DNA of 63,638 nucleotides, the filler included, from Folioceros fuciformis (taxonomy: Eukaryota), in assembly GCA_049999805.1 (NCBI GenBank). It is 9 parts of 9 records of this genome, joined end to end, with 100 filler letters (N's around TTAATTAATTAA, not from the genome) between each part and the next. Parts side by side here need not be neighbours in the genome. Positions count along the whole stretch, not along the records: positions 46,859 to 51,114 come from JBNGIO010006001.1; 8 more parts are not named here. One strand, written 5' to 3'. How positions within the stretch are numbered: the stretch's first letter is position 1; each line of letters begins with the position of its first letter. The notes beneath the pieces were generated by a model. That model ran no database searches, was not told the origin of the DNA, and was given only the letters and a program-made list of their open reading frames with translations. Below are positions 19,490 to 54,200 of this stretch, one piece after another. The position numbers and the translations under genes were made by a program.

Positions 19490-19589
19490 NNNNNNNNNNN
19501 NNNNNNNNNNNNNNNNNNNNNNNNNNNNNNNNNTTAATTAATTAANNNNNNNNNNNNNNNNNNNNNNNNNNNNNNNNNNNNNNNNNNNN
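19490..19589. other. Assembly gap linker (also 38020, 41859, 46759, 51115, 57255, 59566, 62225; 100 nt each)
   Basis: Identical N44-TTAATTAATTAA-N44 blocks, an artificial six-frame stop linker. Confidence 0.98.
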
Positions 19590-44637: not shown

Positions 44638-46758
44638 CTAAACGCTTGCTGTGAATTGGAGCGCAATGGTGTCCATTAGCGTGTGCTCACTCTCACACTC
44701 AAGGGTTCGACTCGCGTCTGCCCTGAAGTCTCCCGCTAACGAGCCCCAGTGTGGCTCATACACTCGTTTCTTTATTTCAGAATTCAGATGGATCAGGCTT
44801 GCATATATGCCTTGACTCTCAGGATGCTCGTCATCCCCAACCAAAAAACTATGCACAAGTCCGTCCATGTCTGTCCACCAACTCTGGCCTGGCTGCTTCC
44901 ACGCCCCAACTCCTTTCCTCCTAGCCTGCATGAGCTGTGCGTGATCCCACATCTGGGCACTTCTGTATATGTTTGACATCAAGACATATGCTGGCGCATC
45001 TTTCCTGTCTAGTTTCATTGCTTGATCGAAAGCATGGCGTCCAACCTCCACATTGCTCCACTTCTGACAGGCACCTAGCAAAGCATGCCAAACTGGAGCG
45101 TTGGGCAGTACAGTCATGGTACTTATCAGAGCTAGTGCCTCATCCACCTGGCCTGCACGGCCCAGGAGGTCCACCATGCATGTGTGGTGTTCCACCGTAG
45201 GATGGATGCCATACTGTATTCTCATATTCTCAAAGACCTCTCGCCCCTCGTTCACAAGATCACCCGCATGACTGCAGACTGTCAACACACTAAGGAAGGT
45301 GATGTCGTCAGGCTGTATGCCATCCTCTGCCATCCTTTGAAACAAGGCAAAGACTACATCACTGCTCCCTTGACGGGTGTAGCCTGCAATCAGTGCATTC
45401 CATGCGGCTACGTCTCTCTCTGACAAGGCCTCAAACACCTGTTGAGCATCAACCATGCTCCCAGACTTCCCATACATATTTATCAAACTGCAAGCTACAA
45501 GCACATCGGTATGGAGCCCTTGTTGAACAATCTGCGCATGAAGCTGCTTTCCCACAAGCAACGCTGCCACATTTGCACATTCCTGCAAGAGGCACTTAAA
45601 TGTCACAGAATCAGCTGCAACGACACCTTCTTCTTGCATGACCTTGTAGAGAGCAAGGGCTTCCTGACCCATGCCCTGCTGCGAGTATCCTGCTATCATA
45701 GCCCCCCACGTCACCACATTCTTTTCACTAAGGCCGTCAAACAGCACTCGGGCATCCTCTAGGCTGCCACACTTGGCATACATGTTCACCAAACTGCTGG
45801 CAGCAAAAACATTAGCCTGCATTCCTCGCTCCCTAATCTGTGCATGAAGCTGCTTCCCCTTCTCCAAACCCAAACTTCCCCCAACAGTTGCACAAGCATG
45901 CAGGAGGCACACAAAGGTGACACAATCAGGAGCTACGATGCATTCTTGTTGCATGGCCTTGTACAGATCCAGGGCTTCCTGACCCATGCCCTGCTGGGAA
46001 TACCCTGCAATCATGGCACTCCACGTCACCACATTTTTGTCACCAAGTCCATCAAACACGGCCCGAGCGTCCTCAAGGCTCTCACACTTGGCATACATAT
46101 TCACCAAACTGCCGCCAACAAGTCCATCAGCCTCAAGTCCTAGCTCTCTAATTTGCGCATGAAGCTGCTTCCCCGTCTCCAAACCTGGGACACCTACGCT
46201 TGCACACGCCTGCAGCAAGCACACAAACGTAACAGAATCGGGGGCATCCGTGCCCTCTTCTTCTAACATGGCCCTGTACAAACGAAGAGCTTCCTGCCAC
46301 TTGCCCTGTTGAGAATACCCCGCCATCATGGCATTCCAAGTCACCACATCCTTGTGCCCGAGCCGGTCAAAAATCCTCTGGGCATCTTCCAAGCTCCCAC
46401 ACTTGGCATACATGTCCACCAAGGAAGTCCCAAGAAATAGCTGCCGATCAACCCCCGAGGCCACTACATCAGCATGCACCTGCTGACCAGTTTCCAGGTC
46501 CCCACCTCTCGCACAGGCCTGCAGCGCTGCCACAAAGACATGCCCATCCGCCTTCACGCCAGACCCCCGCATCCGACGATACAGCTCCACAGCCTCCTTA
46601 TCCTGCCCGTGCCTCACATGCGCAGATATGATCGCAGACCAGGTGAACGCATCCGGGTCATCAACCATCAAGAACACTGCCATCGCCTCTTGCATCTTGG
46701 CATGCGCAGCATACATTCGTAGGACGTGATTGCACAGGAAAGTGTCCGACTCATATCC
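44638..46758 (-). CDS. PLS-class PPR protein with E domains, WW-type PG box and truncated DYW (E+); 5' end in gap
   Basis: P-L-S triplets, VEHHTCMVDLLGRAG, WKQPGQSWWTD..VHSFLVGD..HPE. No HxE or CxxC before the stop. Frame open up to the gap. Confidence 0.92.
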   Translation of the reverse strand, partial: GYESDTFLCNHVLRMYAAHAKMQEAMAVFLMVDDPDAFTWSAIISAHVRHGQDKEAVELYRRMRGSGVKADGHVFVAALQACARGGDLETGQQVHADVVASGVDRQLFLGTSLVDMYAKCGSLEDAQRIFDRLGHKDVVTWNAMMAGYSQQGKWQEALRLYRAMLEEEGTDAPDSVTFVCLLQACASVGVPGLETGKQLHAQIRELGLEADGLVGGSLVNMYAKCESLEDARAVFDGLGDKNVVTWSAMIAGYSQQGMGQEALDLYKAMQQECIVAPDCVTFVCLLHACATVGGSLGLEKGKQLHAQIRERGMQANVFAASSLVNMYAKCGSLEDARVLFDGLSEKNVVTWGAMIAGYSQQGMGQEALALYKVMQEEGVVAADSVTFKCLLQECANVAALLVGKQLHAQIVQQGLHTDVLVACSLINMYGKSGSMVDAQQVFEALSERDVAAWNALIAGYTRQGSSDVVFALFQRMAEDGIQPDDITFLSVLTVCSHAGDLVNEGREVFENMRIQYGIHPTVEHHTCMVDLLGRAGQVDEALALISTMTVLPNAPVWHALLGACQKWSNVEVGRHAFDQAMKLDRKDAPAYVLMSNIYRSAQMWDHAQLMQARRKGVGAWKQPGQSWWTDMDGLVHSFLVGDDEHPESQGIYASLIHLNSEIKKRVYEPHWGSLAGDFRADASRTLECESEHTLMDTIALQFTASV

Positions 46759-46858: not shown

Positions 46859-49800
46859 CTGCAACAACCATTTGCGAATCGATGCACACGGTACCCATCC
46901 CTCACAACAATGTCTCTCTGCTCAAGCCTCGACATGATCGCCGTGGAGCTGTGGCAATCACTGCACATGCGTAGATTCTTGGTTACCATCAGAGGTGTCC
47001 CATTCGGAGTGTTCAACAGACCAAACGCCAGAGCTAGCTTCTCAGCATGTCCACAAAGCACGTCTTCTTTTTCCTTCTCACTCAGTGGCTTCAACACCAA
47101 CTTTGTGTGAGGTACGTGGCCTCCTTCCTGCTTCACACGCGCATTCGTGCTCTCTACCTTAAGCGCAATATCCTTTCTCCTTTCTCCCACCAGAAATCTG
47201 TGTACCTCCTTATTCACCTCAATGCTTGCCACTGCTGGCTTCTTCTTAGCTCCTGCTGCCTTTCTCTGTGTTTCGATCCTGTCTACATCGGTCCACCTAC
47301 CTGCATCTGCATAGGCATTGGCCATGAGAACATAGGCAGGTGCCTCCTGGGAGTCCAGCCTAACAATGCTTTCAAAACACCACACAGCCCTCTCTAGATC
47401 TCCGTGACTTTTGCAGGCATTCAACAAAGATGTCAAACACACCACATCACTTTGGCCCTCACATGATAATAGCATCCTCTCTGCCTCATCTAATTGGCCA
47501 GCACGCCCAAGCAGATCAATCATGCAGGTGTGATGCTCAACAGTAGGTCTGACACCATGCTGTTCAGCCATGGAATCAAAGAGCTTGCGACCCTCCTCGA
47601 CCAGACCCCCATGACTGCATGCTACTAGAAGGCAAGTAAAAGTAGCATCGTCAGGATGAACACCAGCAGCTAACATCTCCTCAAACCACGCTAGCGCCTT
47701 ACGACCTTCATCACAAGCACCATACCCAGCAATCAGGGCTGTCCATGTAACCACATCTTTAGTGGCCATGCTGTCAAAAACCTGGCGTGCATCTTCCACC
47801 TCACCACATTTTGCGTACATATCCACCAGGCAGGTTCCCACCACTACATCATCCAGCAGACCTCTGTTGACAATCTGTGAGTGAAGCTTCCTGGCTTTCT
47901 GCAAGGCACCAGTGCTTCCACACGCCTTCAGAAGGCAAGCAAAAGTAACACGGTCAGCCAAAACGAGGCCTGCCTCCTCCATCTGTGCATACACAACAAG
48001 CGCTTCTTGGCCGAGTCCTTGCTGTGCATACCCAGCAATCAGAGCATTCCATGTCACCACATCCTTAGTGGCCATGCCGTCAAAAACCTGGCGTGCATCT
48101 TCCAGCTCACCACATTTCGCATACATGTCCACCAGGCAGGTTCCCACCACTACATTATCCAGCAGTTCTGTTTCGACAATCTGTGAGTGCAGCTTCCTGC
48201 CCTTCTGCAAGGCACCAGTGCTTGCACACGCCTTCAGGAGGCAAGCAAAAGTAACACGGTCAGCCAAAACGAGGCCTGCCTCCTCCATTTGTGCATATAC
48301 AACAAGCGCCTCTTGGCCGAGTCCTTGCTGTGCATACCCATCGATCAGGGCCGTCCATGCCACCACATCCTTCGTGTCCATCCTGTCAAAAACCTGGCGT
48401 GCATATTCCAGCTCACCACATTTTGCATACATGTCCACCAGGCAGGTTCCCACCAGTACATCATCTAGCAGACCTCTGTGCACAATCTGTGAGTGAAGCT
48501 CCCTGCCTTTCTGCAAGGCACCAGTGCTTGCACACGCCTTCAAAAGGCAGGCAAAAGTAACACGGTCAGCCACCACGAGGCCCGCCTCCTCCATTTGTCC
48601 ATACACAACAAGTGCCTCTTGGCCGAGTCCTTGCTGTGCATACCCAGCGATCAGGACCGTCCATGTCACCACATCTTTCGTGTTCATGCTATCAAAAACC
48701 TGGCGTGCATCTTTCATTTGGCCACATTTTGCATACATGTCCACCAAGCAGCTGTTAACAAACAAGTCAGTACGGAAGCCACTGCGCAACACGTCGCAGT
48801 GCACTGTTCTGCCAGATTCTAAGTCGGCAGCAAATGCACAAGCTTGAAGGGCGGCTACAAAGACATAACCATTCGCCTTCACTTCTGACCTACGCATTTC
48901 ATGGTACAGTTGTATGGCCTCCTTCGGCTTCCCGTGCTTAGCATGTGCAGAGATTATGGAAAACCACATGAAGACATTCGGTTTCCCTACCCTGTTGAAC
49001 ACATCCATCGCCTCCTCTAGCCTACCTCCACATGCATACATGCGCAAGATATGGTTCCCCAAATATGCATTCGACTCGTACCCAAGTTTGACCGTGAGAT
49101 CATGAACTCGTCGCCCCACCACCAAATCCTTCTTAGCTGTACAGAGTTTTAACACTGTGTAAAACAGAGACTGAGAAACGCCAGAGTCTGACTGCACCAG
49201 AGATTCCAGGGCTCCAACGGCCTCAGAAAGCTTCCCCTGATGACATAACATGCTCACGGTTGCAGCAGTTACGACGCCCGTTTCCAATTCTGCACGCCTG
49301 CCAGACCCACGCTTATCCAGAGAGCTGGACTCGAAAGAAGAGACTCCATGGCCCATTGGATGTGGAAGTGCTGGGTTTCTTACACTGCTGCCCCTGGAGC
49401 CCATTTCACCATCTCTACGCCTTCCAGGTTCAGGATTATCTGGAGAGCTCAAGTTGGAAGGAGCGGAACCGAGACCCATCTGCTTATCCAAGGAGACGAG
49501 CCTGTCATCAACCCAAGCTGGCTTAAATTTGTTGTCCAACCACAGCACCTCACCGGACCCCTTACGCCGGAAGTGAGGGGAACGGGAGCTCTTCTTGTCT
49601 CGTCTGTTATCCCACCACATGGTAGGGTCCAGAAAAAGTTGTTGCCACAAGTGCTCCTGCTGCTCCTGGCAACTACCAGCATCGTCGGAAAACCCGTCCC
49701 TGCCCACACACCTTCTCGTTCTCGGAGGTGGAAGTGCTGGGCTCCTGACACTGCTGCACCTGGAGGCTTTGTTCGCAAAGGGTTCACTCCCGAAGCTGAG

Positions 49801-49890
49801 GTGAGCGGGGGTTCCTGGTAGAGTCCTTGTACACACACCAAGTCCAATTTGTTGGGTCCAAAACAGGTCCGGTTGCCATACTGTGGCCAT
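46859..49890 (-). CDS. PLS-class PPR-DYW:KP RNA-editing factor with N-terminal OSB-like PDF motif; last codons in gap
   Basis: KKKPAVASIEV (KP box), CGHAEKLA, KNLRMCSDCH, HRFANGCC, and N-terminal LWQQLFLDPTMWWDNR..PHFRRKGSGEVLWL..PAWV. Confidence 0.95.
47745..48745 (-). repeat. 306-bp (102-aa PLS triplet) internal tandem repeat, about 3 copies
   Basis: Near-identical DNA blocks at 306-bp spacing (47881/48187/48493). Confidence 0.9.
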
Positions 49891-50150
49891 CGTTCAGGGA
49901 CCGCTGTCGGAAGATGACTCTAACAAAAGTCTCGTCTAGGCAGATCCCCGGCCGGGTGCACTGGACATACGTGTGTATGACCACAGCAGCCTGAAGGGGT
50001 GAACCGTGAGCCGTCCTATAATACCTGTGGCCGAGCTGTCGGACTGGTGCTTCAGACCACTCGACCACTCGACCGTGTGACGGATATTAGGCAGTAACTT
50101 TATGTTTCAGTTTAGATATACAAAACAGTTAATTGCTTGTCAGCCGCATG

Positions 50151-50529
50151 TATGGAATATCCATACGGATAGGGCCTCTTTCACAGAAATTTTAGGGCAG
50201 CGGTATATGGTGCAAATAGTTTGGACATAATGTTTCTGCAGCTTTGGTCATTGGGCACAAAGTAGGTGTCCCGATCGAGATACCTATCTTACTTTATCCG
50301 TCACGTTCCAGTCCTTCACCTACTTTATTTTGTCTCTCATGTCCTAGTCCTTCACCTACTTTATTTTATCCCTCACGTCCCGGTCCGTCTCCTCCACTCA
50401 CACTCATTCCCTTTTTTTTTAAGTTAGGGTTAGGGCTGGTGGGTTCCACATCCACGGTTCAGCATCTTTCCTTCGGACCTTAGCGTTCACCGTCCTCAGC
50501 GTTCACCACCTCCATGCACACCCCTAATC
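50151..50529. repeat. Dispersed non-coding repeat, copy 2
   Basis: Paralog of 15867-16170, with an internal short tandem duplication (AGTCCTTCACCTACTTTATTTT). Confidence 0.85.
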
Positions 50530-51214: not shown

Positions 51215-54200
51215 GCTCTTCTTGAAGAAGAGTCTACTAGGCATACAAGCAAGGGTGGTTCTCACAAGGGAGACCACATTAATAGGGTGCTTTACACTAA
51301 AGGCCCTCGGAGGCAACCTCCACGACAAGCTTGGTCTGCTAGTAGCAGCAGTGGTAACACTAAGAAGAAACCAAGTGCTGCCACCACTAAGAAAAAAAGG
51401 CACCTGCAACTGGTGCTTGATTCCTGGACATTGGGAAGCTGAGTGTAGAAAGAAAAAGGCTGGAGAGCCTAAAAGGACTGCACCACCTGAAACCAATGTG
51501 GTACTTCGAAAAACCAACACCATACTTGCAGTCTGCCTTGTCTCATCTGTATCAGATAAGCACATCTGGTTCTTAGACTCCGGAGCCTCTGCACATATTT
51601 GTCATACAAAGGATTCCTTTGACAACTATAGACCAGTGCAACCTGGACAGTCAGTCAAGCTGGGGGATGACAGAGGTCTTACCATAGAAGGAGTCGGTAC
51701 AGTTCCAGTTGTCCTTGCAGATAAGACAACTATCCATCTTAGTGATGTGTTACATGTGCCTGACATGGCAAAGAATCTAGTGTCTATACGTAGGTTCACA
51801 GCTCAACATCCTCTTGACATCTCGTTCAGTAGAGATGAATGTCACATTACTGATCCACGGTTGGGAGACAAAGTAGTTGCAGTTGGTACCCCACTGCATG
51901 ACCTGTACAAGGTCAACTTTACCTCCAAGTTTGGCACACGTCCTGCAAGAGCACATGTGCATGTCAGTCAAGAGGAGAAACAACAGCAGCAGGCCATGCT
52001 ATGGCACTGCCGCCTGGCTCATGTCAACTTTGACAAACTAAAAACTATGGTGGCCAGTAACAATCTGTATAGAGAAAAATTTATGCTCAAGTTTGCAGAC
52101 AAGCAGTTCTGCGAATCATGTGTCTTCGGCAAACACAAGAGGCTACCCTATGCTGATAAGAATCCTACAAGAGCAACTAAGTTGCTGGAGCTCGTACATA
52201 CTGACCTATGTGGCCCCATGTCCACAGCCACCTTTGGAGGTGCACTCTATATTCTGTCCTTTTTAGATGACTGGAGCCGCTATGTGGTAGTATACCTGCT
52301 CAAACACAAAAGCCAAGCCTTGAGCCGCTTCCAGGAGTACGTTCCCTATGCACAAAGACAAACAGGCCAACTAATTAAGTGCCTTCGCAGTGATGGAGGA
52401 GGTGAGTTCTGTTCAAATGCTTTTGAGGAATACTGTAAGGACCTGGGGATAAGCAGACAATACACTGTACCTTACACATCTTCTCAAAACCCTCTTGCCG
52501 AGTTGAACAATAGACACCTTCAAGAAGCTGCTAAGTCTTTGCTTCAGTTTTCTGGTTTATCACGGGGTTACTGGGGTGAGGCAGTTGTAACAGCTGCATA
52601 TGTCAGAAATAGGCTACCCACAAAAGCCTTTGAGGGTGCCACTCCATTTCAGAGATGGACTAATCATAGACCAAGGATCAATCATCTGAGGATCTTCGGG
52701 TCGCCTGCGTATGCACACCTTGCAGAAAAACAACGCAGGAAGTTAGATTACAAATCCCGTAAGTATGTGTTTATTGGTTATACAGAAGGAATTGAAGGGT
52801 ATAAATTATATGACCCAATGTCTAGAACCACCACACATGCTAGGAGTGTAATCTTTAATGAGCAGCTGCTGTTACATCCACCTACAGCCAATGCACCTCA
52901 GCAGAACCCTACCTCAGACCAAGCTGATGAGCCTCATGACATCACCTTAGAAACTGGAACTATGTCTACATCTCAGACTTGTGCACAGCAGCAACAGATT
53001 AGAGTACCCTAGTCCTCTACACCATCATCCAGTCAGGCCCCACACCCATCTATGGATACTGACCTCTCAGATGACGATGACGAGCCAAGTGTGTTCCCTG
53101 ACAATGATAGTGAAGGGGAGGAGCCAGTCTCCTTTGAATCTGTGCACAATGCAAGTGATGGTGAGGAAGATCAGCCACATACAGAAACAGCAGCAGCAGG
53201 AAGTGCACCTGAACCTGAACTTAGAAGGAGCAGCCGAGTGCATACCTCTTCTCCAGCTGAGTGGAAGGAGCCACCACTTACATACAAAAGCTTTCTAGTC
53301 CAAGAGGATGCTGATCCCATGGATGCAGGAGACCCTCAGTCCTACCAAGAGGCTCTAAATTCACCAGATAAAGAAAAATGGAAGGAGGCCATTGAGTCTG
53401 AGTATAAATCTATTATGGATAACAAAACGTGGGTTCTTGAGGATCTCCCTGCAGGAAGGAAGGCTGTGACATGCAAATGGGTCTTCAAGACCAAGTTGGG
53501 AGCGGATGGGTCCATAGCCCGATACAAAGCAAGACTTGTAGCACGTGGCTACAGTCAGGTAGAAGGGCTAGATTACACAGAAACTTTCTCTCCAGTGGTG
53601 AGGGCCACATCTGTCCGTGCATTGCTGGCCTTGGCTGCTCAGAATGATTTCCTGTTACAGCACATGGATGTTAAAACCGCATTCCTGAACGGAAAATTAG
53701 AAGAAACAATTTATATGAAGCAACCAGAGGGTTATGTGGATCCTAAACATCCACAGAAAGTCTGTAGACTTATTAAAACTATCTATGGACTGAAGCAGTC
53801 CCCAAGAGAGTGGTATAAACGTATTGATGCCTATCTCAAGCAATGTGGCTTTGCACAAAGCGAAGCGGATTCAAATGTTTATAAACTACATGACAAGGAC
53901 GGTGTAGTATACCTGGCCCTGTACGTTGATGATGCGATCATCATGGCCAGTGGCCCAAAGCACATGGCAACAGTGAAAGGGTTTCTGACCTCTGAATTCT
54001 CTATGACAGATTTGGGCCAGCTAACATTCTTTCTTGGCATACAGATCCAGTAGAACCTTCCTGCACACACAATATTTATACATCAGTCCACATTTGTACA
54101 ACAAACCTTAGTCAGGTTCAGAATGCAGCATGCAAAGCCAGTGGCCACACCTATGGCTGTTGGAGATAAACTGACTCTTGCACAATGTCCAAAGACTGAA

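Follow-up and report, generated by a model that had tools for sequence, protein, structure and literature searches.

A PDF-motif homologue ahead of a predicted DYW:KP-type PPR editing factor in Folioceros fuciformis points to an old, apparently undescribed PDF-PPR lineage

Pentatricopeptide repeat (PPR) editors are usually pictured as a code-reading array of repeats followed by a deaminase, the N-terminus being seen as a disposable targeting peptide. In heterologous assays this N-terminus is routinely dropped; the PPR56 clone, for instance, kept only 14 residues upstream of its first PPR (excerpted text of PMC10482289). Within the PPR-DYW:KP editors, known from hornworts, lycophytes and ferns and from the designer proteins KP2, KP3 and KP6, the deaminase domain is marked by KP in place of the PG box, by an alanine in the HxE motif and by CxxC (excerpts of PMC9478123), and its active-site lysine, Lys88, is conserved (excerpts of PMC11845758). 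Proteins of the OSB type (organellar single-stranded DNA-binding) carry the PDF motif of ~50 residues, which is named for its conserved Pro-Asp-Phe signature and which in AtOSB1 is sufficient for the binding of single-stranded DNA (ssDNA), as the excerpted text of PMC6963530 states, citing Zaegel et al (2006). Here we analyse a window of 63,638 nucleotides from Folioceros fuciformis (GCA_049999805.1), by which we mean the whole stretch of DNA studied, filler included. A gene on its contig at 46859–51114 brings these elements together, its predicted product having an N-terminal homologue of the PDF motif, a PLS-type PPR array and a DYW:KP-type deaminase domain.

Compared with the OSB proteins, the Folioceros protein shares a homologous motif of ~60 residues with W, P, D, R, K, F and L at the near-invariant positions; the best single-motif matches are 45–55% identical, and proteins named OSB1 or OSB3 match with E values of 4e-19 to 1e-15. 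It differs from them in that the host of the motif is a PPR editing factor, in that the motif is single and N-terminal, whereas in OSBs it is C-terminal and present in one to several copies, in reading P-H-F rather than P-D-F, and in having no SSB/OB-like domain in Pfam. Among the best 25 of the 26 Pfam families found for the protein at E ≤ 1 the SSB family, PF00436, does not figure; OSB proteins have a central SSB/OB-fold-like domain ahead of their PDF motifs, and as none was found we do not regard the protein as an OSB. With the PPR-DYW:KP editors it has in common the PLS array, the E motif, KP, HAE, CxxC and Lys 88. In contrast to these, it has an N-terminal PDF domain, which goes unmentioned in the excerpted descriptions of those editors (PMC9478123, PMC11845758), and it is an editor by prediction only. 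The protein also resembles a set of PDF-PLS PPR proteins from public proteomes, described below, in which the PLS PPR array likewise comes after a PDF motif at the N-terminus. These keep the aspartate in P-D-F and are without the repeat-bearing linker segment seen here.

The gene appears to encode a nuclear PPR protein of the PLS class that ends in a DYW:KP-type domain, and thus one of the class responsible for U-to-C editing in organelles. A single frame of 1010 codons, unbroken by any stop, runs from Met1 through the PDF motif and the PPR array into the DYW domain, and an in-frame stop lies two codons upstream of the ATG at 49890. From the N-terminus the protein consists of a disordered region, the PDF motif, a linker of ~65 residues, the PLS PPR array, the E motif and the DYW domain (Table 1). 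Because the contig stops within the DYW domain, at 46859, about the last 5–6 residues are not seen, among them the terminal triplet, which in the DYW:KP subclass differs from D-Y-W. In Pfam the array is matched by PF01535 (E 1.3e-90, in 13 stretches), the E motif by PF20431 (E_motif; E 3.8e-15) and the deaminase by PF14432 (DYW_deaminase; E 9.3e-31, residues 924–1010, model positions 1–87 of 93); there were zero matches within the first 220 residues. The DYW domain starts KKKPAVASIEV, with KP replacing the PG box, and has alanine in the HxE motif (CGHAEKLA). The HxE(x)nCxxC zinc signature is present, with HAE at residues 948–950 and CSDCH at 976–980, and Lys971 falls at position 88 if Lys884 and Pro885 are counted as positions 1 and 2, which is a matter of position arithmetic without an alignment to KP6. 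Both DYW:KP features named in the original prediction, which had been made from the same DNA, were found, KP at K884-P885 and HAEKLA from residue 948, and CSDCH is present as well. Inside the PPR array there is a 306-nt tandem repeat (47721–48751; 3.4 copies, 90% matches), which we read as probably representing recently duplicated P-L-S triplets. At the other end of the protein, residues 1–64 contain 8 lysines and arginines against 2 aspartates and glutamates, and 47% of them are Ser, Thr, Ala, Pro or Gly; from this composition we infer a resemblance to an organelle presequence.

To place the motif, a phmmer search of 1,835,955,588 representative proteins was made with residues 75–140 (66 residues) as the query. 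There were 541 matches at E ≤ 1e-3, of which 124 reached E ≤ 1e-10 and 15 reached E ≤ 1e-30. Ten SSB-like matches were checked by name and three of these carry OSB names, one from Populus ('protein OSB1, mitochondrial-like'), one from Euphorbia ('organellar single-stranded DNA binding protein 3') and one from Anthurium ('Protein OSB3'). Against a motif profile made from 403 instances in the best 150 of the 541 matches, the Folioceros motif scores 76.7 bits, where the instances themselves have a median of 72.0 bits and a 10th–90th percentile range of 52.1–87.6 bits; the profile is partly dependent on the Folioceros motif, as the matches from which it derives were picked by their likeness to it. 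Twelve near-invariant positions are retained (W8, P15, W18, D20, R22, K25, P31, F33, L42, W43, P49 and W51). Taken together, the phmmer matches and the profile score show that the motif is truly homologous to the PDF motif of OSB proteins, with a similarity far beyond chance. This homology had been proposed in the original prediction, and the profile and phmmer searches bear it out, as Pfam, phmmer and the profile together do the overall architecture of a PLS PPR protein with a DYW:KP-type domain and an in-frame N-terminal PDF-motif homologue. The peptide on which that proposal was based, LWQQLFLDPTMWWDNRRDKKSSRSPHFRRKGSGEVLWLDNKFKPAWVDDRL, does lie on the minus strand and shares the reading frame of the PPR array; its 51 residues correspond to 49650–49498, while the end point originally given, 49486, would add four further residues, VSLD. 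Because Pro105-His106-Phe107 stands in place of Pro-Asp-Phe, the segment is named here a PDF-motif homologue with a substituted signature and not a canonical PDF motif. The change from aspartate to histidine was not mentioned in the original prediction.

An AlphaFold2 model of the motif, calculated with an alignment of 28 motif-bearing sequences, has a compact helix-strand-strand-strand-helix fold (pLDDT 88.8, pTM 0.74). In a model of the first 255 residues the pLDDT is 79–89 across residues 71–137 and below 50 for most of residues 1–68 and of 141–203, with helices from residue 209. The motif model gave no match at E ≤ 1e-3 in a Foldseek search of the PDB, and VIA-align found no similar fold, with a best Z of 4.1 among 48,161 chains. 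A sequence-profile search of the PDB matched the helper alignment in its SSB-like part alone and not in the motif itself. Word-indexed protein searches gave zero matches, whether with the motif among longer proteins or with residues 40–235 or the N-terminal 255 residues among proteins of comparable length; since the exhaustive phmmer search gave 541, we attribute this to a limit of the index.

The matches were sorted by architecture using phmmer runs on the best 150 of the 541. An SSB-like domain lies upstream of the motif in 73 of them and a PPR array downstream in nine, while none has both and 68 have neither, many of the latter being fragments or arrays with as many as nine motifs. Pfam confirmed PF00436 above its cut-off in protein P0034 and PPR families in six of the nine PPR-linked matches. 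These nine comprise two proteins from Adiantum capillus-veneris (KAI5076972.1 and KAI5061374.1), one each from Ceratopteris richardii (KAH7429238.1), Pteridium aquilinum (a transcript) and Selaginella moellendorffii (XP_024517303.1), and four further proteins. In all nine the motif is N-terminal to the PPR array, with three motifs in P0005, and the Adiantum, Ceratopteris, Pteridium and Selaginella motifs are the nearest relatives of the Folioceros motif, at 54–57% identity. Metagenome contigs were scanned with the pattern Fx[NDS]PxxWWDN, which matched 248 stretches, of which 139 were confirmed and 80 kept. A PPR array is found downstream on the same strand at 19 of these 80 loci, within 50 nt at 16 of them and ~1.1 kb away at three, and an SSB-like region is found at 36. 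As several loci are one gene from different samples, the distinct metagenome PDF-PPR genes number about eleven. At locus L030 the motif and the array lie within one open frame of 1105 codons, and at L036 the motif is interrupted by a GT..AG intron. At L036 (5001–7705), and also at L034, L035 and L037, a stop in a DYW-like region stands at the place of the catalytic glutamate.

In a tree of the motif with 384 tips, 10 of the 12 PPR-linked motifs fall into a clade of 15 tips together with the Folioceros motif (support 0.92), the four other tips of this clade being short N-terminal fragments. When metagenome instances are included (415 tips), 16 of 20 PPR-linked motifs fall into a clade of 29 tips (support 0.89). 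The grouping is suggestive of one or a few old fusions, and is not proof of them. PDF-PPR is a real architecture, older and commoner than the original prediction supposed; from its distribution it appears to be an old lineage in seedless land plants, and the Folioceros gene to be neither unique nor recent. The motif also occurs in other settings. Arrays of seven or more PDF-like motifs are seen in P0009 and P0155–P0159, from the dinoflagellate Effrenium voratum and from ENA/JGI metagenome proteins. P0040, an annotated protein of 1526 residues from Coptis chinensis, has a kinesin motor domain behind three PDF motifs; either this is a further architecture or two genes were merged in the model.

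From three public runs, X1, X2 and X10, the RNA type of X2 and X10 being only a guess, contigs of related organisms were placed on 48900–50400 at a likeness of at least 85%. On these 1.5 kb there are 782 contigs from X2, 1233 from X1 and 3823 from X10. The summed depth of X1 in the motif bin (49563–49613) is 7098, compared with 11–18 for the listed single contigs, from which we read a copy number in the hundreds, as a rough figure; the PDF-PPR lineage is amplified to many copies in the lineage of Folioceros itself. One X1 contig is identical, with zero differences, to the upstream region 50118–50393. Depth peaks at the motif, in the first PPR motifs, around the start and in copy A of a direct repeat that flanks the motif, and is lowest over the linkers; within the N-terminal extension the motif bins have the deepest coverage and the linker bins the shallowest. 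It drops upstream of ~49920–49970, and seven X1 contigs lose their likeness exactly upstream of 49891, adjoining the ATG. This coverage fits a coding unit that begins at 49890, with the motif as the constrained part of the N-terminal extension.

The reading that we favour, and consider somewhat probable, is that the gene is a member of the old PDF-PPR lineage in which the PDF domain would act as an accessory anchor for single-stranded nucleic acid. The domain would be retained on the mature protein and, by homology, would form a sequence-independent anchor on a flexible tether. PPR arrays bind RNA in a parallel orientation, and the anchor would be located at the end of the array facing the 5′ side of the RNA target. 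There it could hold the editor on ssDNA, in nucleoids or in transcription bubbles, or else on RNA to the 5′ side of the PPR site, and so raise the local concentration or dwell time of the editor at nascent transcripts. Docking on ssDNA at nucleoids would fit the published binding preference best, while a role on RNA or in protein docking is possible. The original prediction had suggested that the module could tether the editor or broaden the range of its substrates. A more far-reaching proposal, which we advance with considerable doubt, is that the PDF domain is a regular component, under selection, of a large clade of PLS editors, perhaps with hundreds of copies in this lineage, and is ancestral to the PDF-PPR genes of seedless land plants. 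It might then give these proteins a second site for binding nucleic acid, independent of the PPR code, which would dock them on ssDNA at transcribing nucleoids and so couple editing, including U-to-C editing, to transcription.

A number of observations weigh against the reading of the domain as an anchor. OSB1 and OSB2 prefer ssDNA over double-stranded DNA or RNA (excerpts of PMC4166229) and, as OSB biochemistry thus favours ssDNA, an anchoring role on RNA is without direct support. At the signature column, 383 near-full-length instances have Asp in 96%, Ala in 3%, Asn in 1% and His in 0%, and the copy with His106 may have a weakened or altered anchor, may bind poorly or may be decaying. The motif tree is based on 56 columns, and OSB-type instances are mixed into the 29-tip PPR-linked clade. 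The connection of the motif with the DYW:KP domain is not general. Four full-length PDF-PPR proteins (P0078, P0104, P0121 and P0005) end at or near the E motif without a deaminase, and none of the best 150 of the 541 matches resembles the Folioceros DYW domain. The sole metagenome gene with DYW similarity (L034–L037) has two in-frame stops in that domain, a decaying deaminase domain behind an intact array. The Folioceros gene is therefore the only intact combination of PDF, PLS and DYW among the sequences read and, with no other intact deaminase, a link of the PDF domain to editing catalysis is not established. Finally, no run recorded as RNA contains the stretch; the zero reads of the raw RNA run X23, which has a different organism label, say nothing about expression.

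The histidine is central to a contrary explanation, in which the PDF module was fused long ago and has simply been copied with the family, being non-functional here, or in which the whole copy is a decaying paralogue. Besides the strong preference for aspartate at this column, the codon is GAC (Asp) in most of the depth of the related contigs: 4372.7 of 5049.5 in X2 (45 contigs), 5834.5 of 6273.2 in X1 (55 contigs) and 105473.6 of 106969 in X10 (79 contigs). The family is of high copy number, the recent internal 306-nt repeats suggest a fast turnover, and the runs recorded as RNA give no sign of expression. On the other hand, the remaining non-Asp depth at this codon in X1 is ~439, far above the 11–18 of single listed contigs, so that the histidine seems to be common to several copies rather than an error. 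The frame is also open for all 1010 codons to the end of the contig, the other near-invariant positions of the motif and the landmarks of the deaminase are intact, related contigs conserve the motif better than any other part of the N-terminal extension, and it has been kept from Selaginella to ferns. Such passive inheritance or decay is unlikely. It is also rather unlikely that the domain serves in protein–protein contacts or oligomerisation instead of contacting nucleic acid, for example by docking to OSBs, to other PDF-bearing proteins or to nucleoid complexes. A small, Trp-rich domain that is confidently predicted and carried on a flexible tether would suit such a role, the motif is found in many architectures, arrays of as many as 9–13 copies among them, and AtOSB2 is reported to be a tetramer (excerpts of PMC6963530); the only published activity found for the motif is, however, the binding of ssDNA. 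That the motif lies outside the working protein is improbable. Being within the first 140 residues it could be cleaved with a targeting peptide, translation could start at one of the later in-frame methionines (91, 138, 163, 179 or 214), or the segment could be spliced out. Yet a 60-residue motif that is 50–57% identical to its counterparts in ferns and scores above the median is unlike what is expected of the evolution of a transit peptide. Met91 is inside the motif, the predicted boundary between disorder (1–68) and fold (71–137) sets the motif apart from the N-terminal region, the seven X1 contigs diverge exactly upstream of 49891, and in L030 motif and array share one open frame.

A direct repeat brackets the motif and gave rise to a further proposal, that the module was recently captured from an OSB gene and that the repeat is the scar of its insertion. 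The repeat is genuine and in frame. Over 42 nt its two copies are identical at 37 positions (88%), with starts 366 nt or 122 codons apart, whereas, when the same 751 nt were resampled 100 times under a first-order Markov model, the best 42-nt window had at most 27 of 42; the original prediction was right as to its existence, while its length is 42 nt and not 38 bp. The idea that the gene 'captured' the module, with the repeat as its trace, fared less well. PDF-PPR proteins are found in ferns, in a lycophyte and in many contigs, and the PPR-linked motifs group together in the trees. Distant lineages have the fusion without the repeat, the linker segment with copy B being absent from the relatives P0130, P0143 and P0145, and the N-terminal module, like both repeat segments (bins 49359–49409 and 49716–49766), is multi-copy in related genomes. 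In addition, the Folioceros motif is closest to PPR-linked and not to OSB motifs, those at ranks 0, 1, 4, 5, 6 and 8 of 383 being PPR-linked. We therefore reject the repeat as an insertion scar and consider a recent capture highly improbable. The fusion long predates the repeat, which we read as a probable small duplication within the linker and presequence of the PDF-PPR family.

Table 1. Features of the PDF-PPR gene of Folioceros fuciformis, in positions of the window.
Feature	Position	Strand	Remarks
PPR gene open frame	46859–49890	−	1010 codons; ATG at 49890–49888; 3′ end cut by contig end
N-terminal region, residues 1–70	49681–49890	−	predicted disordered
Direct repeat copy A	49724–49765		encodes ..SRCSSVRSPALPPP.., on the N-terminal side of the motif
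PDF motif homologue, residues 76–138	49477–49665	−	phmmer, profile, structure model
His106 codon CAC	49573–49575	−	position of the signature Asp in P-D-F; GAC in most related contigs
Linker, residues 139–208	49267–49476	−	low predicted order, up to the first PPR helices
Direct repeat copy B	49358–49399		encodes ..SRGSSVRNPALPHP.., within the linker, on the C-terminal side of the motif
PLS-type PPR array	47407–49266	−	Pfam PPR, 13 stretches
E motif, residues 829–891	47218–47406	−	Pfam PF20431
DYW:KP-type deaminase domain	46861–47241	−	K884-P885 onward; HAE 948–950, K971, CSDCH 976–980

The window is made up of nine contigs joined by spacers of the form N44-TTAATTAATTAA-N44, at 19490, 38020, 41859, 46759, 51115, 57255, 59566 and 62225, so that genes on either side of a join are not necessarily neighbours in the genome. 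On the contig adjoining that of the PDF-PPR gene there is a second PLS PPR gene (44638–46758, minus strand), which loses its N-terminus where the contig ends. A PG-type box, KQPGQSWW, is present, but inspection of the translation shows no recognisable HxE..CxxC in the C-terminal tail; the gene resembles a DYW:PG gene that has decayed or been truncated. On the other side, a long open frame at 51215–53012 (plus strand) resembles the gag-integrase part of a Ty1/copia-type retrotransposon, as judged from the translation alone. On the contig of the PDF-PPR gene itself, ~400 nt upstream of the ATG, there is a 36-nt tandem repeat at 50282–50380 (2.8 copies, 80% matches).

A literature search found no paper that links the PDF motif to PPR proteins, with mention being possible in Zaegel et al (2006), Gutmann et al (2020) and the supplements of PMC13386178 and PMC13393729. 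Within the reach of this search the PDF-PPR architecture is apparently undescribed, as the original prediction had surmised, although such proteins are present unremarked in public proteomes. By term search, 'OSB' and 'PDF' are absent from the text of a 2026 survey of the domain fusions of editing factors (PMC13386178), and 'PPR' is absent from a 2026 survey of 182 OSB genes (PMC13393729). This silence may be explained by the PDF motif having no Pfam model. The known range of the motif is extended here beyond the OSB proteins. If the PDF domain does act as proposed, a conserved, folded N-terminal domain of a single-strand-binding type would be an unrecognised working part of the PLS lineage, and this could bear on how editors locate nascent RNA, on why native factors can outperform designer ones and on the design of tools for U-to-C editing.

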